Translations under genes and position numbers: made by a program
Notes under the pieces: generated by a model
What the model saw: only the letters and a program-made list of their open reading frames with translations
The model's database searches: none
What the model was told of the DNA's origin: nothing
Origin: Minisyncoccota bacterium
GTDB taxonomy: Bacteria > Patescibacteriota > Minisyncoccia > Phycocordibacterales > UBA5272
Assembly (NCBI GenBank): GCA_018063165.1
Contig: JAGOQU010000002.1
Span: forward strand, 77,471 to 141,470
Reading direction: 5' to 3'
DNA: 64,000 nt
Part shown: positions 26-57,073 of the stretch, piece after piece
How positions within the stretch are numbered: the first letter of the stretch is position 1
Layout of the letters: every line of letters starts with the position of its first letter

Positions 26-1105
26 ATGCTTCATCCACAATTTGATTTTGATTCTGCTATACGTTGGCACTTGGATCAAGTTCGTAAACTGCGCGCACCA
101 ACTGGACTTTTTACTGCGTCTGCAAGTGATGTCACAACGGGTTACAATAAAGCATGGCTTCGTGATATTTATTTCATGACTCTTGGTTTTAAGTACACAG
201 GTGAATGGAATGTTGTGCAAGATGCAGCAAGGGCACTTCTTAAAATTCTAGCTCTTCATAAAGATAAGATAACATGGGCAGTAAACAATAAGCCATTTGA
301 AACATGGCAATATATACATGCGAGATATAATCCAGAAACATTTGAAGAATATTGGGAGGAGTGGGGGAATAAACAGAACGATGCAGTTGGAGAAGTTTTA
401 TATCTCATTTGTGATTGTGAATTATCTGGATATTCTGTTCTTGAAACAGAAGAAGATAAACAGCTTGTTCAAATGCTTGTTAATTATTTGAATGCTATTG
501 AATATTGGCATGATGCTGATTCTGGTATTTGGGAAGAAAATCAGGAAATGAGAGCTTCTTCTATCGGGTCTGTTGTAAGAGCTCTTTCAACAGCAAAACA
601 ACTTCCTTTTATTTTAATTCCAGATGACGCAATAGAAAAAGGTAATCAAGCTCTTAGGTCACTTCTTCCACGTGAGACGTCTACACGTTTTTGTGATCTT
701 GCCCTCCTTACACTTATTTTTCCATTTGAAGTAACAACAGAAGAGGAGACAAAAACCATACTTTCAAATGTTGAATATTTTCTTACTCGTGATATGGGGG
801 TTATACGATATAGAAATGATAGATATTATAATAAAAATAAAATTGATGGATATAGCGAAGAGGCTGAGTGGTCTATGGGTCTCGCATGGCTTGCTATTAT
901 TTATGCAAAAAGAGGTGATCTTGAAAAAGCAAAATATTATTTAGAGAGGTCAGAGAAAACAGTAAATAAAGATGGGCTTATTCCAGAGCTTTGGTATTCT
1001 CACACAGAGGAATCAAATGATAATATTCCACTTGGGTGGGCAGAAAGTATGCATGTAGTTGCTCTTGTGTGTGTAAAAGATTTGATTGCTAAAAATACTC
1101 AGTAA
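26..1105 (+). CDS. glycoside hydrolase family 15-like (glucoamylase/glucodextranase family) protein
   Basis: 359 aa ORF. Motifs GYNKAWLRD and SGIWEE resemble the GH15 (alpha/alpha)6 signatures (WxRD and the WEE general-acid region). It is short for a full GH15 enzyme. Confidence 0.5.
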   Translation: MLHPQFDFDSAIRWHLDQVRKLRAPTGLFTASASDVTTGYNKAWLRDIYFMTLGFKYTGEWNVVQDAARALLKILALHKDKITWAVNNKPFETWQYIHARYNPETFEEYWEEWGNKQNDAVGEVLYLICDCELSGYSVLETEEDKQLVQMLVNYLNAIEYWHDADSGIWEENQEMRASSIGSVVRALSTAKQLPFILIPDDAIEKGNQALRSLLPRETSTRFCDLALLTLIFPFEVTTEEETKTILSNVEYFLTRDMGVIRYRNDRYYNKNKIDGYSEEAEWSMGLAWLAIIYAKRGDLEKAKYYLERSEKTVNKDGLIPELWYSHTEESNDNIPLGWAESMHVVALVCVKDLIAKNTQ

Positions 1106-25121: not shown

Positions 25122-26825
25122 GTGATGAATGCTTATAATATAATAACGCAAGAAATAAAAAAAATAGTAGGTGAGGGTGTTGATTTTTCTGTTTCTATTT
25201 CAGAAGATTTTTCTCGAGGTGACTATTCAACAAATCTTGCTTTTGTTCTTGGTAAACAAAAAAGTATTACTCCGAATATGTGTGCTGAAGAACTTGTTCC
25301 AATTCTACAAGAAAAACTTATTGCTGTTGTAGAAAAAATAGAAGTTGCTGGACCTGGCTTTATTAATTTTTCTTTGAAGAAAGAAATTATAAGAGAAGAA
25401 ATTTTGAGATGTCAAAAATTAGAAACATTTACAACAAAATACACAGATAAAAAAGTTCTGGTTGAACACTCATCTCCAAATCTTTTTAAACCATTTAGTG
25501 TTGGTCTCCTTCTTAATCATATTGCTGGAGCATCACTTACCCATCTTATGAAAGCAGGGGGTGCAAAGGTTACAACAGTTTCATTCCCTTCAGATATTTC
25601 TATGGGTATTGCAAAAGCAGTGTACTCAATAAAAAAAGATGGTGGACTTTCTCAAGACATTTTTAATAAAAGTCAGGAAGAGGTTATTGCATATCTTGGC
25701 AGTGCATATACCCGAGGCGTCACATCATTTGATGAATCAGAGTCTGTACAAGGAGAAGTAAAAGAAATTGCAGAGAAACTCTATAGTGAAACACCAAGTG
25801 AAGAGTTCGATATTTTTGAAAAAGGGAAGAATATAAATGTTGCATATTTTGAACACATGCTTTCACTTCTTGGTTCACATTTTGACGGATTCATTTATGA
25901 AAGTGAAGCAGCTGTAGTTGGTAAAGAGATAGTACTTGCACGAGAGGACATATTTACTCATAGTGAAGGTGCTATTGTGTATATTCCAGACGAGGGGACA
26001 AAGGGTGTGCATACGGCAGTATTTATTAATAGTCAAAGGAATCCAACATATGAAGCAAAGGATCTTGGTCTCCTTCATATGAAATTTGAACGTTACACCC
26101 CGGACTATTCTTTTTTTGTTACCGATAATGAGCAAATCTCTCATTTTAATGTTGTGCTCGATGCTGCTTCAAAAATTGAAAAGAAATGGAAAGAGGTGAG
26201 CACTCATGTGTATCATGGTCGTATGACATTTAAGGGTCAGAAGATGTCGAGTAGACTTGGAGGCGTTCCTCTCGCACAAGAAATTTTGGATGTTGTTACA
26301 GACGAAGTAAAAGAAAGATCTGGTGAAAAAATAGATCATCTTACAGAAGAAGAAAAGAACGTCGTATACAAGCAGGTTGCGCTCGGAGCGCTTCGCTTCT
26401 CTATGCTCCGCTCGAAACTTGGTAGTTCAATTAATTTTGATCCAGAAACATCACTCTCATTTGAAGGAGATTCTGGTCCATATGTGCAGTACACCTATGC
26501 ACGAGGAGTATCACTTTTAGCAAAAGGAAAAGAATTAGGATTTTCACCATCGTATCATTCTGGAGAAGAAGTTACGATTCTTGAAAGAAAACTCATGCAG
26601 TGGGAAGGGGTTGCTTTGCGTGCCATAGAAGAAATAGCTCCTCAATATGTTGTAACTTATCTTTTTGAGCTTGCTCAGATGTTTAATAGTTTCTATGCAT
26701 CGACTCCAATTGTTGTAAAGGGTGATGATCTCTCAGAACATAGACTAGCTATTACAGAATCTGTAACGAAAGTGATTAAAAAAGCACTACACCTTCTCGC
26801 TGTTGAAGCACCAGAGAGAATGTAG
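25122..26825 (+). CDS. argS: arginine--tRNA ligase
   Basis: 567 aa with overall ArgRS architecture, a QKMSSR variant of KMSKS and a C-terminus ending APERM as in bacterial ArgRS. The HIGH position appears to read SVGL by eye. Confidence 0.75.
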   Translation: MMNAYNIITQEIKKIVGEGVDFSVSISEDFSRGDYSTNLAFVLGKQKSITPNMCAEELVPILQEKLIAVVEKIEVAGPGFINFSLKKEIIREEILRCQKLETFTTKYTDKKVLVEHSSPNLFKPFSVGLLLNHIAGASLTHLMKAGGAKVTTVSFPSDISMGIAKAVYSIKKDGGLSQDIFNKSQEEVIAYLGSAYTRGVTSFDESESVQGEVKEIAEKLYSETPSEEFDIFEKGKNINVAYFEHMLSLLGSHFDGFIYESEAAVVGKEIVLAREDIFTHSEGAIVYIPDEGTKGVHTAVFINSQRNPTYEAKDLGLLHMKFERYTPDYSFFVTDNEQISHFNVVLDAASKIEKKWKEVSTHVYHGRMTFKGQKMSSRLGGVPLAQEILDVVTDEVKERSGEKIDHLTEEEKNVVYKQVALGALRFSMLRSKLGSSINFDPETSLSFEGDSGPYVQYTYARGVSLLAKGKELGFSPSYHSGEEVTILERKLMQWEGVALRAIEEIAPQYVVTYLFELAQMFNSFYASTPIVVKGDDLSEHRLAITESVTKVIKKALHLLAVEAPERM

Positions 26826-28020
26826 ATCGTATAAGGATCCTTGAGAGTGGTTTTCTTCTGACGGATAAAGTGAATTATTATTGTTAATAAATACAATTAA
26901 TTTTCTATAAAAATGCTATTATTTAGTTATTAATTAAACTAAAAACTTGCATGAAAAATATTCTACTGAAATGGTTATTTATTTATTTGTCTCTTTTTCT
27001 TGGAACTTCTTCATCTTTTGCGATGGTGTGTACTGATCTTACAAAAACCCTCTCTAAAGGTTCAGAAAATAGTGAAGTATTGAAACTACAGCAATTCCTT
27101 TTTGATGGTGAATATTTAACTGCAAAACCAAATGGATATTTTGGAAATGGAACTGTTTCTGCGGTCAGGAAGTTTCAAAAAACAAATGGACTTTCACAAG
27201 TTGGTTTAGTTGGCCCTGGAACAAGGAATAAAATTAAAAGTTTAAGTTGCAGTAATAGTTCTAAAAATGAAACATTACTTATAAGTTTACCTCAAAATAA
27301 GAATAATATTCAAATTAAAGATAAGAAAATAACAGATAACTCTAAAATGATAACTGTATCAAAAGATTCTGATCTTATATACTTTCCTGTTCGTGAGCCT
27401 AGAGATAGTAACATAGATGGTGAAATAAAATCAATTGAAAATATTAAATATTATTTATTAGAGACATACAGAATGGAACCTTTTATTGTTTTTGAAGATT
27501 TCTTTACTCGTGCGATTGACTATAGGAAACTTACTCCTACAGGTGAAGCGTGTACAAGATTATTCGTAAGTAGTCAAAAAAGAGATTTTTATAAAGATAT
27601 CTCTTTATTAGATACAAAGAATTATCTTTTGAGTTTCCCAGAACTTAAAGCTCTAAGAGATATAAATCTTGAATATAAAAAGAACCCGAACAGTTTTAAT
27701 AAGCAACTTAAAGATAGTACACAAGATAGAGCTGAAAAATTCTTAAAAGAGAATGAACTAAAACTTAATGAAACATTTGATCAAAAGTATCTAGCGAGTA
27801 TTCGGTCTTCATATGAAAAATTTGCATCTAGTTATAATACGGATCTATTTAATTCTTGTAGGATTGATAAAAATGGACCACCCATAAAAGTAAATTTTGT
27901 TATTTCTAATAGAGATTTTGGCAGTATTCTTAATTTAAATACTCTTTTAAAGTATATTCTTGAAGATGGAATAATTTAGTTTTTTAAATCTTTAAAAAGT
28001 TTTTCTTCCTAGTTTCTTTA
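26826..28020 (+). mobile_element. putative integrated segment flanked by direct repeats of the argS 3' end (no integrase present)
   Basis: The 1.2 kb between argS and a 95 percent identical in-frame copy of its last 180 bp carries a single secreted peptidoglycan-binding protein gene. Confidence 0.35.
26951..27979 (+). CDS. secreted protein with peptidoglycan-binding (PG_binding_1-like) domain
   Basis: Signal peptide. LKLQQFL ... GYFGNGTVSAVRKFQKTNGLSQVGLVGPGT matches the PG_binding_1 repeat. Confidence 0.5.
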   Translation: MKNILLKWLFIYLSLFLGTSSSFAMVCTDLTKTLSKGSENSEVLKLQQFLFDGEYLTAKPNGYFGNGTVSAVRKFQKTNGLSQVGLVGPGTRNKIKSLSCSNSSKNETLLISLPQNKNNIQIKDKKITDNSKMITVSKDSDLIYFPVREPRDSNIDGEIKSIENIKYYLLETYRMEPFIVFEDFFTRAIDYRKLTPTGEACTRLFVSSQKRDFYKDISLLDTKNYLLSFPELKALRDINLEYKKNPNSFNKQLKDSTQDRAEKFLKENELKLNETFDQKYLASIRSSYEKFASSYNTDLFNSCRIDKNGPPIKVNFVISNRDFGSILNLNTLLKYILEDGII

Positions 28021-28021
28021 G

Positions 28022-28201
28022 TATGTTGTGACCTATCTTTTTGAGCTTGCTCAGATGTTTAATAGTTTCTATGCATCGACTCCAATTGTTGTAGAGGGTG
28101 ATGATCTCTCAGAACATAGACTAGCTATTACAGAATCAGTTACGAAGGTTATTAAAAAAGCACTATACCTTCTCGCTGTTGAAGCACCAGAGAGAATGTG
28201 A
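28022..28201 (+). pseudogene. duplicated 3' fragment of argS (last 59 codons plus stop), no start codon
   Basis: Near-identical to 26646..26825. It is in frame and ends ERM followed by TGA. Six of the eight codon differences are synonymous. Confidence 0.7.
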
Positions 28202-28216
28202 TTTCTTGGCTGAATT

Positions 28217-28353
28217 CCTGGCCAAGAAATCACTTCCAAGCGTAAGCGTTAGGAAGTAAATTTCTTGTCTTAATTTAGAGAAGTGTATTGCTAGTTTCCC
28301 TGGCCAAGAAATCACTTCCAAGCGTAAGCATTAGGAAGTAAATTTCTTGTCTT
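28217..28353 (+). repeat. two copies of a 54 bp hairpin-forming direct repeat (units 28217..28270 and 28309..28353)
   Basis: Unit CCTGGCCAAGAAATCACTTCCAAGCGTAAGCGTTAGGAAGTAAATTTCTTGTCTT contains an internal inverted repeat (AAGAAATCACTTCC / GGAAGTAAATTTCTT). An extra inverted repeat lies at 28200..28231. Confidence 0.6.
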
Positions 28354-28498
28354 GTCCTAATTTTGATGTTTTTTCTCTTGCACCATTATTATTTTCTGTT
28401 AGTATTAAGTAATAAGAGATACGTTGAAGGAATTAATCACTCCTGAGTATGGGAAGAACCTGACATCTCGTCACAAGTAGAACCCGAGTAAATGAGTT

Positions 28499-28538
28499 GG
28501 ATGGTATTTTTTGAAATGCATTTCAAAAAATACCATCC
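28499..28538 (+). promoter_or_regulatory. perfect 40 bp palindrome in the ileS leader
   Basis: GGATGGTATTTTTTGAAATG followed by its exact reverse complement CATTTCAAAAAATACCATCC. Confidence 0.6.
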
Positions 28539-28546
28539 AAAAAACA

Positions 28547-28560
28547 AGGTGGTACCACGA
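28547..28560 (+). promoter_or_regulatory. T-box-like sequence motif in the ileS leader (hypothetical)
   Basis: AAGGTGGTACCACG matches the T-box consensus AGGGUGGNACCGCG at 12 of 14 positions. It lies about 75 nt upstream of the ileS ATG. Confidence 0.3.
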
Positions 28561-28632
28561 CCAAACATCGTCCTTGGAAAAGAAATTAAATTCTTTTCTG
28601 TGGGCGATTTTTATTTTACTAAAAAACAAATC

Positions 28633-31600
28633 ATGAGCAATAATCAAACTAACACCCCAAAAACAATAAGTGAAAAAGAACAGGAGACACTGAAGTTCTG
28701 GCAAGAAAATGCTATTTTTGAAAAAACAATAACAACTCCTGCTAACGAAGAAGCGCGAGGAGATTTTTCATTTTATGACGGACCTCCGTTTGCAACAGGA
28801 CTTCCTCACTATGGACATATTCTTGCGGGTACTATAAAAGATACAATACCTCGATATCAAACAATGAAAGGGAACAGTGTGCGTCGTGTGTGGGGGTGGG
28901 ATTGTCATGGTCTACCAATTGAAAATTTGATTGAAAAGAAACTTGGTCTTACAAGTAAAAAAGATATTGAGGATTTTGGTATTGATAAGTTTAATAAAGA
29001 TGCTAACGATAGTGTTCTTACATACGAAGAGGAATGGAAAAAAGTTGTTCCACGTCTTGGTAGATGGGCTGACATGGATAGACCGTACAAAACAATGGAT
29101 GCAACATATACAGAAAGTATTTGGTGGGCATGGAAACATTTACACGAAAAAGGTTTGGTATACGAGGGGCATAAAATGATGCACATATGTCCACGTTGTG
29201 AGACAACCCTTGCTCAAAGTGAAGTTGGTATGGAATACACAGATATTACAGATTTATCTGTTACAGCTAAGTTTGAACTTGTTGATGAACCAGGGACATT
29301 TGTTCTTGCGTGGACTACTACACCTTGGACTCTTCCAGGTAATAGTGCTCTTGCTGTTAAAGGAGATGCTTCATATGTAGTGGTTGATATAGATGGTATG
29401 GAAGGAAAGTATATTCTTGCAGAAGAAAGAGTTGAACATGTTCTTAAAGATATGAAGTGTGAAGTTGTTAAAAAAATGAAAGGTGAAGATTTGGTAGGAA
29501 AAAAATATATACCACCATTCCCATATTTTAAAGATTCTGATATTGAGTATAAAGAAAATGCGTTCAAGATTTGGCATGCTGATTTTATTACATTAGATAC
29601 AGGTACAGGTATTGCTCATGAGGCTCCAGCATTTGGTGCTGAAGATATGGATCTTGCAAAGCTTCATTCTATTCCTGTTATAAAGCATGTAAAAATGGAT
29701 GGAACATTCATATCTACAGTTACTGATTTTGCTGGAATAAAAGTAAAAGCAAAAGATGATACACAGTCAGCAGATATAGAAATTATTAAATGGCTTGCTC
29801 ATCATAATGTACTTTTTGAAAAACATAAAATTATACATTCATACCCACTTTGTTGGCGCTGTAAAACGCCGTTACTCAACTATGCAACGTCATCGTGGTT
29901 CGTTGATGTTCCGAAGATAAAAGACAAGCTTCTTTCTGAGAATCAGAAGATTGGGTGGACACCTGCGCACACACGTGACGGGCGTTTCGGTAAATGGTTA
30001 GAAGGTGCTCGTGAATGGGCTGTTTCACGTAGTCGTTATTGGGGTGCACCACTTCCAGTTTGGAAAAATGATGATGGTGAAGCGATGATGATTGGCTCTC
30101 TTAAAGAATTAGCAGAACATACATCACAAAAACCAAAAAATACATATTATATAATGCGTCATGGTGAGTCTGTGAGTAATCAAGATGGTATTCTTGAAAC
30201 TAAAGGTGATCCAAATAATCATTTAACAGAAAAAGGAAAAGCACAAGTTATGGATTCTCTTGCTCTTATTAAGTCTCTAGGTATTGATGTTATAATTACA
30301 TCTCCTTTTGTGAGAACAAGAGAAACTGCTGCTATTGTGTCATCTTTTTTAGATATACCTGTAGAGACCGAAGATAGAATACATGAATATGATATGGGTG
30401 AATTTAGTGGGAAGAAGGCTACAGAATATATGGAATATTATGGTCATTCATATTTACGTTTTAATACTCGTCCAAAAGGCGGTGAAACTCATGAAGAGAT
30501 GATGAATAGATCAATGAGTGCAATTATGGATTTTGAGAATCGTTACGAAGGTAAAAATATACTTGTGGTTACTCATGGCGGACCAGCTCGTATGATGCTT
30601 ATTGGTGGAGAACTTTACACAGAAGAAGAAGCTCTTCTTGATGAACGTGCAGTAATAACAACTCTGTATCTTGGTAATGCTGAAATACGAAAACTTAATT
30701 TAAAAATTGTACCACGTGATGAAACTGGTGCTGTTAATCTTCATAGACCATATATTGATAATGTAACGCTTTCAGTAAATGATAAAATATACACACGTAT
30801 ATTAGACGTATTTGATTGTTGGTTTGAGTCAGGGTCTATGCCGTTTGCTTCCATCCACTATCCGTTTGAAAATAAAAAAATATTTGATAAAAATTATCCA
30901 GCTGATTTTATTGCCGAAGGGGTTGATCAGACGCGTGGGTGGTTTTATTCACTTATTAATTTAGGTGTTGGTCTTTTTGATAAAGCACCATATAAACACG
31001 TTATAGTTAATGGTCATATATTGGCATCATCAGGTTTAAAACTTTCAAAGAGTGAAAAGAATTATACAGACCCAATGGAGCTTGTAGAAAAATATGGAGC
31101 AGATGCAATGAGATACGCTCTTATAGCTAGTCCTGCTGTTAAAGGTGAAAACGTTCAGTTTGATGATGAAAATGTTTCTGAGATATATAAGAAATGTATA
31201 TCTAGACTTGAGAATGTTGTGACTCTATATGAAATGAATAAACCAGAGAAGACTCAACCTTTGAATACTTCAGAAAATATTCTTGATAGTTGGATGATAT
31301 CCCGCATTAATGAACTTGTAACAGAATCAACAAAAGGATATGAAGAGTATATGCTTGAAGATGCTACAAGAGGTATAGCAGAAATTATTGATGATATATC
31401 TGTGTGGTATACAAGAAGATCAAGAGATCGTTTAAAAGGGGATGAGGGTGAGATGTCTAAGAAAGAAGCTTATCAAACACTAAAATATACGTTACTAACT
31501 CTTTCAAAAGTGATGGCACCAGTGATGCCTTTCATATCAGAAAGAATATATAAACAGTGTGATGGCGAAAAAGAATCTGTTCATTTAGAATCATGGCCGA

Positions 31601-32082
31601 TATCAGATAATATAGATTATGAAATAATTAAAGATATGAAGATTGTACGAGAACTTGTTTCCCTTGGTCTAATGAAAAGAACTGAAACAAAAATAAATGT
31701 AAAGCAACCACTTCTTTCTGTTTCATTTAAGAAAGTTGTTTCTGGTAAGTACAATAATCTTATTAAAGATGAGTTAAATGTAAAAGATGTTTTCTATAAT
31801 GATTCACAAAAAGAAGATGTTGTTCTTGATACAACGATCACAGAAGAGTTACAGAAGGAGGGTGATATACGTAAACTTATTCGTGCTGTTCAAGACATGA
31901 GAAAAGCAAAAGGACTTAAACAGGTAGACGAAATTAATCTTGTTGTTTCTTCATTAACATCTTTAGGGGATATGTCACTTCTTGTATCAACGTGTAAAAT
32001 AAAAGAAATTAAAGAAGATGTTAGTATTAAAGATAATAGTATTGAATTATCCTCAGGTGTTTTATGTTTTGTATTAGAGTAA
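28633..32082 (+). CDS. ileS: isoleucine--tRNA ligase (type 2-like) with an inserted histidine-phosphatase (PGAM-like) domain
   Basis: HYGH (HIGH) and KLSKS (KMSKS), the editing-domain region, WAVSRSRYWGAPLPVW and DCWFESGSMP. The start was placed at MSNNQTNTPKT because the track ORF extends upstream through the palindrome. Residues encoded by about 30139..30714 carry RHGESVSN and VVTHGG, characteristic of the histidine phosphatase superfamily. Confidence 0.85.
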   Translation: MSNNQTNTPKTISEKEQETLKFWQENAIFEKTITTPANEEARGDFSFYDGPPFATGLPHYGHILAGTIKDTIPRYQTMKGNSVRRVWGWDCHGLPIENLIEKKLGLTSKKDIEDFGIDKFNKDANDSVLTYEEEWKKVVPRLGRWADMDRPYKTMDATYTESIWWAWKHLHEKGLVYEGHKMMHICPRCETTLAQSEVGMEYTDITDLSVTAKFELVDEPGTFVLAWTTTPWTLPGNSALAVKGDASYVVVDIDGMEGKYILAEERVEHVLKDMKCEVVKKMKGEDLVGKKYIPPFPYFKDSDIEYKENAFKIWHADFITLDTGTGIAHEAPAFGAEDMDLAKLHSIPVIKHVKMDGTFISTVTDFAGIKVKAKDDTQSADIEIIKWLAHHNVLFEKHKIIHSYPLCWRCKTPLLNYATSSWFVDVPKIKDKLLSENQKIGWTPAHTRDGRFGKWLEGAREWAVSRSRYWGAPLPVWKNDDGEAMMIGSLKELAEHTSQKPKNTYYIMRHGESVSNQDGILETKGDPNNHLTEKGKAQVMDSLALIKSLGIDVIITSPFVRTRETAAIVSSFLDIPVETEDRIHEYDMGEFSGKKATEYMEYYGHSYLRFNTRPKGGETHEEMMNRSMSAIMDFENRYEGKNILVVTHGGPARMMLIGGELYTEEEALLDERAVITTLYLGNAEIRKLNLKIVPRDETGAVNLHRPYIDNVTLSVNDKIYTRILDVFDCWFESGSMPFASIHYPFENKKIFDKNYPADFIAEGVDQTRGWFYSLINLGVGLFDKAPYKHVIVNGHILASSGLKLSKSEKNYTDPMELVEKYGADAMRYALIASPAVKGENVQFDDENVSEIYKKCISRLENVVTLYEMNKPEKTQPLNTSENILDSWMISRINELVTESTKGYEEYMLEDATRGIAEIIDDISVWYTRRSRDRLKGDEGEMSKKEAYQTLKYTLLTLSKVMAPVMPFISERIYKQCDGEKESVHLESWPISDNIDYEIIKDMKIVRELVSLGLMKRTETKINVKQPLLSVSFKKVVSGKYNNLIKDELNVKDVFYNDSQKEDVVLDTTITEELQKEGDIRKLIRAVQDMRKAKGLKQVDEINLVVSSLTSLGDMSLLVSTCKIKEIKEDVSIKDNSIELSSGVLCFVLE

Positions 32083-56841: not shown

Positions 56842-57000
56842 TACGCACTTCTCCTTATAGTTAGACTTTTTTGAAAGATATTAAATACACCTTTCAAAAT
56901 ATATAGTACTCTTTTAGGCTTTTTTGTAAAGTGCTCACAATATAAAAAGCACACTGTCATTTCATGGTGAATATGATATAGGTATATTTTATATACAAAG

Positions 57001-57073
57001 TGCGCCCACCAGGACTCGAACCTGGGACCAGTCGTGTATAAGACGACGGCTCTACCAACTGAGCTATAGGCGC
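57001..57073 (-). tRNA. tRNA-Ile (anticodon UAU)
   Basis: Manual fold of the minus strand. Acceptor GCGCCUA / UGGGCGC, D-arm GCUC-AGUUGGUA-GAGC, anticodon stem GUCGU / ACGAC with loop CUUAUAC (U33, A37, anticodon UAU), variable loop UGGUC, T-arm CCAGG-UUCGAGU-CCUGG, discriminator A. No encoded CCA. Confidence 0.75.

Follow-up and report, generated by a model that had tools for sequence, protein, structure and literature searches.

The window analysed here is a 64,000-nucleotide (nt) stretch of the Minisyncoccota bacterium contig JAGOQU010000002.1, and our subject is the region in front of its gene for isoleucyl-tRNA synthetase (IleRS), ileS. A duplicated 3′ end of argS lies upstream of ileS, and the spacer of about 430 nt between the two holds no supported open reading frame (ORF), as a sequence-only reading of this DNA had proposed. 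The spacer contains an inverted repeat, two direct repeats, a promoter block and, from about 28412 to 28632, a conserved region that is very likely the 5′ leader of ileS, with a T-box that would sense the charging state of tRNA-Ile(GAU). All the features that the earlier reading had listed are present, and chance would not be expected to produce any of them. T-boxes serve as a model system for an RNA that reads another RNA.

The IleRS encoded in the window matches with 100% identity a protein from a “Candidatus Pacebacteria” metagenome-assembled genome (MAG), and its 120 best homologs (63-100% identity) are all found in assemblies of Patescibacteria, or the Candidate Phyla Radiation (CPR). Homologous IleRS proteins align from residue 1 of the 28633 start. 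The ORF start at 28492 and the start of the NCBI gene model at 28516 (P0001, 1188 aa) therefore over-extend ileS, and the latter start lies inside Stem III of the riboswitch. The N-terminal extension of the ORF, whose translation the sequence-only reading had doubted, is thus an artefact. The features of the leader and the gene that it precedes are the following, with (+) denoting the forward strand.

28378-28405 (+): probable ileS promoter, with the -35 box TTGCAC at 28378-83, a 16-nt spacer containing TG at 28397-98, and the -10 box TAGTAT at 28400-05
28419-28450 (+): ultrashort Stem I, from RNAalifold, covariation and the Rfam alignment
28419-22 with 28447-50 (+): base helix of Stem I, AUAC/GUAU
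G28426 A28427 with G28445 A28446 (+): K-turn-type G.A pairs of Stem I, with the bulge at 28423-25
28428-31 with 28441-44 (+): upper helix of Stem I, 3-4 bp in the leaders
28432-28440 (+): terminal specifier loop of Stem I
28436-28439 (+): specifier AUC (Ile) and the purine A that follows it, from invariance in relatives
28451-28485 (+): Stem II, from invariant motifs and a covarying base
28451-53 with 28483-85 (+): base of Stem II, GGG/CCC
28454-58 and 28476-82 (+): S-turn strands of Stem II, AAGAA and AGUAGAA
28461-73 (+): distal hairpin of Stem II, UGAC-AUCUC-GUCA
28486-28496 (+): A-rich linker GAGUAAAUGAG, ending in the conserved RAG at 28494-96 and replacing Stem IIA/B with its linker
28497-28540 (+): Stem III, 20 bp as RNA (-24.7 kcal/mol), followed by AAAA at 28541-44
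28545-28576 (+): antiterminator, with helix A1 CAAGG/CCUUG (28545-49 with 28572-76) and helix A2 ACGA/UCGU (28557-60 with 28568-71)
28550-56 (+): T-box bulge UGGUACC, 7 nt, in which UGGU would pair with the tRNA 3′ ACCA
28563-28612 (+): predicted intrinsic terminator hairpin, AUCGUCC..GGAAAAGAA / UUCUUUUCU..GGGCGAU, part of the minimum free energy (MFE) fold
28608-28617 (+): terminator U tract UUUUUAUUUU
28633-32082 (+): ileS, the regulated gene, 1149 aa, from Pfam, homologs and the N-terminal alignment

Conservation and covariation of the ileS leader

Does the leader of ileS carry a T-box? We ran the Rfam T-box model RF00230 in two ways, with its curated gathering score (93 bits) and in a permissive E-value mode. 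In the latter mode, a match at 28415-28578 spans the whole model with 38.8 bits (E = 6e-7 when 901 nt are searched and 4e-5 over the whole 64 kb), and it is the sole T-box match in the window. The alignment sets 75 distal Stem I positions of the model against 6 nt of the window, and the score is low because this part of Stem I has been replaced. The scan that the sequence-only reading had proposed as a check thus yields a significant full-model match that stays below the gathering score. The same gathering score is reached by none of the 19 clade relatives tested, and distant loci score 31-58 bits against RF00230.

Our set of relatives comprises 80 loci encoding related IleRS N-termini (the searches for copies of repeats covered 82 loci), and L081, with an IleRS identity of 84%, is the nearest relative found. 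The motif GGTGGTACC[A/G]CG stands 90-110 nt 5′ of ileS in about 20 of the 80 loci, all among the closest, and their leaders share one architecture. A clade covariance model (CM), built from 18 leaders of related ileS loci, recognizes the window with 116 bits in a single match at 28413-28579, 21 clade leaders with 77-129 bits, and six more distant loci with 24-60 bits; the other approximately 54 loci gave nothing below E = 1. The MFE of the leader RNA is -65.2 kcal/mol (z = -5.2 versus shuffles).

The architecture is common to the ileS leaders of more than 20 related Patescibacteria MAGs, and compensatory changes are observed in every helix. RNAalifold, run without guidance, recovered both Stem I helices and the bulged antiterminator, with compensatory changes at 8 of the 15 pairs. 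In the 22-sequence CM alignment, 99.1% of the cells are paired and double changes likewise occur at 8 of the 15 pairs; none of 500 shuffles showed as much covariation, and slid registers gave at most 45.6% paired. The MAFFT and CM alignments (A1-A5) slip by 1 nt where Stem I meets Stem II and also near Stem III, and for this reason we scored Stem II, Stem III and the terminator on an alignment (A6) of fixed-length segments, which are anchored on invariant motifs and concatenated, and whose rows are not contiguous sequence. On these anchored segments, the three innermost base pairs of Stem II are 100% paired, with one pair being GC in 19 sequences and AU in 4; the six basal pairs of Stem III are 97.6% paired, with double changes at all six; and the terminator is 90.9% paired, with compensatory changes at four pairs.

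Upstream of the folded region, the probable promoter is shared as well. A TTGCAC/TTTAC..-N16-17-TG-n-TAGTAT(TAA) block lies at an equal distance from Stem I in L003, L006, L008, L009, L081 and others, and the remaining leaders have similar extended -10 boxes. A generic promoter scan chose a neighbouring hexamer pair, 28363-28392. From the position of the conserved block, transcription would start near 28411-28413.

The helices of Stem I are 97-100% paired, with double changes at five of the six pairs, and the G-A/G-A positions of the K-turn are invariant, with a 3-nt bulge between the covarying helices, at the level of sequence and secondary structure. The terminal loop has 7-9 nt, and neither the window nor any of the clade relatives has a distal T-loop platform. 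Within this loop, A23, A24, T25 and C26 are invariant and A27 is nearly so (18 sequences), and AAUC[A/G] is present in all 22 leaders. The AUU located two bases 5′ of the specifier in the window reads ACU in the relatives, whereas AUC is invariant.

In Stem II, the G..A..A (GAA) and AGUAGA positions are invariant across the clade, and the length of the distal hairpin in the relatives lies anywhere between 0 and 22 bp. The string G67-U68-A69-G70-A71 has been described for the T-box of ileS in N. farcinica (PMC7583486), and the S-turn letters GUAGA of the window clade match it. The linker that follows is A-rich and 8-13 nt long (11 nt in the window), and ends with GAG or AAG in all leaders that have Stem III; its length leaves no room for a Stem IIA/B pseudoknot. 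RAG and RRRxG purine motifs have been described for T-box discriminators (PMC7583486, PMC11297988).

The significant match to RF00230, the AUC specifier, the pairing of the antiterminator and terminator, and the conservation with covariation among relatives bear out the T-box that the sequence-only reading had suspected, and we hold with high confidence that the ileS leader is a genuine T-box riboswitch.

Stem III and the probable antiterminator-terminator switch

The linker leads into a perfect palindrome of 44 bp at 28497-28540, with 22-nt arms and no spacer. The sequence-only reading had noticed this palindrome, as an item separate from the T-box and as 40 bp at 28499..28538; it is in fact Stem III of the T-box. 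Where the relatives have a hairpin at this position, it ranges from 3 bp (L017) to 21 bp (L011), with 6 bp in many of them. It reaches 19-21 bp in the window, L081, L082, L009, L021 and L011, and is absent in L020 and L023. The flanking sequences are GAG on the 5′ side and AAAA on the 3′ side in the window, and RAG and RAA in the other leaders having Stem III, in agreement with the purine flanks published for T-boxes (PMC7583486, PMC11297988). At pair 4 of the helix, the A-U of the window corresponds to G.U in L081 and to G-C in L082; at pair 8, the window has U-A where L081 and L082 both have A-U; and 9 of 21 sequences have G.U as their basal pair. A G.U pair keeps the RNA helix but breaks the DNA palindrome, indicating that selection acts on the RNA and that an operator is unlikely. 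The check on the conservation of the palindrome, proposed along with its discovery, therefore comes out in favour of the RNA: the pairing is kept in the relatives, and the DNA symmetry is not. In addition, no U tract follows the hairpin of Stem III, and the palindrome is therefore not itself a terminator. No further copy of the 44-mer exists in the 64-kb window or the 82 related loci. Rfam matches on the palindrome (CRISPR-DR50, miRNA precursors and RNA-OUT; E 0.007-4) were dismissed as generic long-hairpin matches.

In solved T-box structures, Stem III stacks on the antiterminator, and Stem III insertions are known (PMC7583486). The tip of Stem III faces away from the tRNA, which would explain the tolerance of expansion, and the lineage-specific 20-bp Stem III, or pausing there, might provide a kinetic compensation for missing contacts. 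Hairpin extensions of 10-22 bp, often perfect, are found at the Stem II tips of L001, L002, L004, L006, L011, L023 and L082, and at the Stem III tips of the window, L081, L082, L009, L021, L011 and L008. Several of these tip extensions have the core CAGTTTTG...CAAAACTG or TTTTTTGAAA...TTTCAAAAAA.

The T-box motif AAGGTGGTACCACG lies at 28546-28559, 74 nt 5′ of the ileS ATG at 28633. The sequence-only reading had rightly recognized it, one base too far to the right at 28547..28560, and AAGGUGGUACCACG matches the 14-nt T-box consensus at 12 of 14 positions, as that reading had counted. Helices A1 and A2, which surround the bulge, are 99-100% paired among the leaders, with double changes at three pairs. 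The 5′ arm of the terminator consists of the 3′ halves of A2 and A1, and the terminator and the antiterminator are mutually exclusive. In the window, the terminator has -18.9 kcal/mol versus -4.4 kcal/mol for the antiterminator, and across the leaders the terminators range from -19 to -36 kcal/mol and the antiterminators from -3.7 to -6.3 kcal/mol. The terminators were parsed by folding each sequence (a consensus terminator scan gave 0 sites), and an equivalent hairpin with a U tract was parsed in 20 of the 22 relatives; L020 folds one as well. In the relatives, the U tract is often mirrored by a complementary A tract before the hairpin. In L009 and L021, A1 has changed to UGAGG/CCUCA and the 3′ arm of the terminator has changed with it to UUGAGG, a three-way covariation that, at the sequence level, is the signature of a switch. 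The T-box terminator loop of L081 contains an insertion of about 125 nt (2862-2990), with both arms retained. No Shine-Dalgarno (SD) or GGAGG-like sequence precedes the ATG at 28633.

How would this switch operate? We propose that transcription begins at the conserved promoter (28378-28405), and that the nascent RNA folds the ultrashort Stem I, whose terminal loop would show AUC-A to the tRNA. By analogy with the ileS T-boxes of Nocardia and Mycobacterium, the purines of the Stem II S-turn should clamp the codon-anticodon helix, and the purine-rich linker ending in GAG would lead over Stem III to the T-box bulge UGGUACC. With uncharged tRNA-Ile, the 3′ ACCA would pair with UGGU, and the weak antiterminator, with A1/A2 stacked on Stem III, would be stabilized, allowing read-through into ileS. 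With charged tRNA, or with none at all, 28591-28608 would instead capture the 3′ strands of A1 and A2 and form with them the stable terminator followed by its U tract, and transcription would terminate about 20 nt before the ileS start codon. The binding of the tRNA, the start site and termination as the read-out are deduced here from sequence, and transcription attenuation is the most likely read-out of the T-box.

Several observations weigh against this interpretation. At the Rfam gathering scores, no T-box is found in the window (38.8 versus 93 bits), and a generic terminator scan is empty in the region, a miss that is taken to be due to the internal loop and the few G-C pairs in the stem. 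Canonical T-boxes close A2 with a G.U wobble, which is the proposed steric or aminoacyl sensor. The window has A-U at this place (28557/28571; columns 189/256 of alignment A4), and among the 22 clade sequences 17 have A-U, 5 have G-C and none has G.U. Neither the window nor the 60 loci searched for it yielded the partner tRNA-Ile(GAU). Moreover, Stem III and the terminator were anchored via the MFE fold of each sequence itself, which inflates the percentage of paired positions but not the diversity of pair types. Finally, transcriptional T-boxes are generally said to need a long Stem I platform (PMC7583486).

Upstream repeats and alternative explanations

The part of the spacer that precedes the promoter, and the end of argS next to it, contain the following features.

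28022-28202 (+): duplicated argS 3′ end, a DALR remnant with a 57-aa ORF at 28028-28201 (Pfam DALR_1 positions 62-117), not part of the riboswitch
28198-28210 and 28221-28233 (no strand): arms of a 13-bp perfect inverted repeat, overlapping both the argS remnant's stop codon and the beginning of repeat copy 1
28217-28271 (+): 55-nt direct repeat, copy 1, folding into an imperfect hairpin
28299-28353 (+): 55-nt direct repeat, copy 2, 54/55 identical with an 82-nt period, ending about 25 nt before the -35 box

The argS 3′ duplicate (178-182 nt) is 95% identical to 26646-26827 in the full argS (25122-26825). The two copies of the argS end flank a 1.2-kb low-GC insert (26828-28021) with one gene encoding a PG_binding_1 domain (26951-27979). 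The argS-ileS spacer of L081 holds three other small ORFs, and this spacer is a variable spot that, from its sequence, looks like an insertion hot spot.

The sequence-only reading had detected the inverted repeat and both hairpin-forming repeat copies, which exist, with borders that are corrected here: the inverted repeat had been placed at 28200..28231, the unit had been given as 54 bp, and the second copy had been started at 28309. In our folding, each 55-nt unit forms its imperfect hairpin and then continues into a U-rich stretch, and the 28-nt core of the repeat was not matched in any shuffle. The unit occurs in only two tandem copies in the 64-kb window and in none of the 82 related loci; even L081, whose promoter and T-box are almost unchanged, does not have it. 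Since the conserved promoter lies 3′ of the repeats, they are outside the ileS leader, to which they had previously been assigned. In the simplest reading of the sequence, the repeats and the inverted repeat (28198-28353) would be a separate strain-specific duplication beside the argS duplicate. The repeats would then most simply be a duplicated hairpin, possibly a terminator, that followed argS, and the duplication would have arisen from the rearrangement that also doubled the argS end and brought in the PG_binding gene. A further candidate, the repeat unit (GAAATCACTTCC) as a decayed copy of Stem I (TTAATCACTCC), was rejected because the clade CM gives a single match in the window.

Could the symmetric elements of the spacer act as DNA rather than RNA? 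The palindrome is a perfect 44-bp dyad without a spacer, GTGGTACCAC is symmetric too, and both are situated between the promoter and the start codon, so either or both could be imagined as a DNA operator for a dimeric repressor or activator of ileS, with the likeness to a T-box being incidental. We consider this alternative, which the sequence-only reading had also raised, to be extremely improbable. The pairing of the hairpin is conserved but its sequence is not, its length varies from 0 to 21 bp in the relatives, and the G.U pairs at pair 4 of L081 and at the base of the helix preserve the pairing only in the RNA. Moreover, GGUGGUACC is the universal T-box bulge sequence, and it is embedded in a covarying helix-bulge-helix that competes with a covarying terminator. 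The 55-nt repeats, in turn, could act in the control of ileS as an upstream operator or enhancer array, or as a second leader element reached by read-through from argS, as two near-identical copies with internal dyad symmetry are located 82 bp apart (about 8 helical turns) and about 25 bp 5′ of the -35 box. However, they are missing from all relatives, even from L081 with its promoter and T-box, they directly follow the duplicated argS 3′ end and are thus within a recently rearranged region, and they have no Rfam match above noise. A regulatory role for the repeats therefore appears very unlikely.

The T-box itself might act on translation through a sequestrator, as in the Actinobacterial ultrashort ileS T-boxes, and not on termination. 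The ultrashort T-boxes in the searched literature are all translational (bioRxiv 10.1101/2023.02.28.530422; PMC7583486), the high-GC metagenomic leaders L140, L160 and L153, with a like Stem I/II signature, end in an anti-SD/SD hairpin, and the hairpin in the window ends about 20 nt before the AUG, where it could hinder 30S loading. In contrast, the lack of a GGAGG-like sequence before the ATG leaves nothing to sequester, and the hairpin with its U tract, shared by the window and the 20 parsed relatives, has the anatomy of an intrinsic terminator. We thus regard translational control as quite improbable and prefer termination as the read-out. A different question is the source of the long hairpin, which could be a small mobile or slippage-made palindromic insertion, similar to a miniature inverted-repeat transposable element (MITE) or a repetitive extragenic palindromic (REP) element, that was tolerated at the tip of Stem III. 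Long near-perfect hairpins occupy Stem II or Stem III tips in different lineages, the terminator loop of L081 also holds an insertion, and many clade members presumably function with a 6-bp Stem III. Nevertheless, the palindrome has no second copy in the 64-kb window, which is only part of the genome, or in the 82 loci, and the extension is vertically inherited with compensatory changes in the window, L081 and L082, and more distantly in L009 and L021. These compensatory changes indicate that the pairing has long been maintained. An insertion origin is therefore unlikely, and it would bear only on the source of the extension, not on its identity as Stem III.

Further downstream, the IleRS protein contains a complete histidine-phosphatase-superfamily insert in its catalytic domain (aa 506-656, approximately nt 30148-30600; His_Phos_1, E 6e-35). 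The RHG, R, E and THGG motifs of the insert are intact, and it is present in all 120 of the best homologs; in the literature searched, no paper joins isoleucyl-tRNA synthetase, histidine phosphatase and insertion. The sole tRNA gene in the window encodes tRNA-Ile(UAU) (57000-57073, reverse strand), whereas AUA is usually served by the CAU/lysidine type. The gene does not encode the CCA end, and the tRNA has A73 as its discriminator, a base that would pair with the U of UGGU.

Relation to known T-boxes and meaning for the clade

Ultrashort (US) ileS T-boxes of Actinobacteria were reportedly described by Sherwood et al. in 2015, as cited through reviews. The members of this class from M. smegmatis, M. 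tuberculosis and N. farcinica (structures 6UFG/6UFH) regulate ileS with an AUC specifier, as the window would. In both, Stem I is no more than a K-turn and a short helix whose terminal loop carries the specifier (GCAAUCACC in the Actinobacteria and ACUAAUCAC in the window), and there is no elbow platform. Both also share the Stem II S-turn GGAAGAA ... AGUAGAACC, the RAG before Stem III, and the bulge UGGUACC. In contrast, the US class has a Stem IIA/B pseudoknot with an F-box and an anti-SD/SD sequestrator (PMC7583486; 10.1101/2023.02.28.530422; L140, L160), while in the window a linker of 11 nt stands where the pseudoknot would be, an SD is lacking, and the terminator is followed by a U tract. 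Its A2 closing pair is A-U and not G.U, its Stem III has 20 bp, and its host is a low-GC Patescibacterium. T-boxes with an ultrashort Stem I are known as the translational class regulating ileS, and translational T-boxes as mostly Actinobacterial, with Stem II and the IIA/B pseudoknot (PMC7583486; bioRxiv 10.1101/2023.02.28.530422; PMC12990946). In TBDB, translational ileS T-boxes were searched for in Actinobacteria only.

The transcriptional T-boxes of Firmicutes (B. subtilis tyrS and ileS; RF00230) have the same order of Stem I, Stem II, Stem III and antiterminator/terminator as the window, and share with it the K-turn, a specifier with a purine after it, the S-turn, a T-box sequence of 14 nt (12/14), a terminator that reuses the antiterminator, and the U tract. 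Unlike them, the window is missing about 75 Stem I model positions (the distal bulge, the AG bulge and the double T-loop platform), presents its specifier in a hairpin loop instead of an internal loop, has no IIA/B, and scores less than half the gathering threshold. With neither the distal Stem I platform nor the IIA/B pseudoknot, the window does not fit the “classic” Firmicute or Actinobacterial T-box that had been expected from the identity of the gene. The glyQS-type T-boxes are, like the window, naturally reduced and transcriptional, and show that one accessory tRNA contact is dispensable. However, glyQS keeps a long Stem I and drops Stem II with IIA/B, whereas the window reduces Stem I, keeps Stem II, and also drops IIA/B.

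The distant Patescibacteria leaders L043, L064, L029 and L053 have, like the window, an ultrashort Stem I with AUC, the S-turn, and a terminator with a U tract. Unlike the window, they still have Stem IIA as a hairpin (CGGG..CCCG), and an F-box-like GUAAUAGC comes after it. As Stem IIA is kept in these distant relatives, the window clade appears to have lost the pseudoknot secondarily, and from these comparisons it looks like a further reduction of the ultrashort terminator-coupled form. L029 also carries a second reduced T-box (76-247, reverse strand; Rfam 46 bits, below the gathering score) on a Patescibacteria-like contig, 5′ of a gene running off the locus. The short loop of its Stem I, CCUACCAAA, may hold an ACC specifier, and its bulge reads UGGA. 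This second T-box hints that the reduced T-boxes in the group of L029 are not limited to ileS. A metagenome scan, with one DNA pattern from the Stem I/II junction of the window as its query, returned low-GC window-like leaders, high-GC leaders with IIA/B and anti-SD/SD, which is the known Actinobacterial type, and a few mid-GC leaders without IIA/B (L113, L115). Both of the latter are ileS leaders with an ultrashort Stem I: in L113 (6420-6558, reverse strand), the alternative hairpin sequesters GGAGG, and in L115 (806-951, forward strand), it has an SD and is followed by a U tract.

Ultrashort T-boxes are thus of a kind that is already known. Judged from the sequences compared, the combination in the window, namely an ultrashort Stem I, no IIA/B pseudoknot, a terminator, a Patescibacterial host and a score below the Rfam threshold, is one that we have not found described. 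In the literature searched, no paper links T-boxes with the Candidate Phyla Radiation, Patescibacteria or Parcubacteria.

Current models regard the Stem I platform as essential for fast co-transcriptional tRNA capture, or else rely on a Stem II plus IIA/B module, and in their view the ultrashort form belongs to a slower and reversible control of translation in Actinobacteria. We see an even chance that the Paceibacteria clade uses a naturally minimal terminator-coupled T-box, with no elbow platform, no IIA/B hub and no G.U sensor. If true, this would contradict the need of transcriptional T-boxes for a long Stem I in fast tRNA capture, and the element would be the smallest natural T-box decoding module. 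An ultrashort, pseudoknot-free, terminator-coupled T-box would test those models, on a scaffold of approximately 105 nt without the Stem III extension.

The finding also concerns annotation. The start of the deposited IleRS gene model, which began inside the riboswitch, is corrected. Because every examined copy lies below the Rfam threshold, the T-boxes of this clade escape annotation, and tRNA-sensing riboswitches in the reduced CPR genomes would accordingly be passed over by standard procedures. The main relevance is to riboswitch specialists, for whom these leaders may serve as a natural test of the tRNA contacts that a T-box requires when it works co-transcriptionally.

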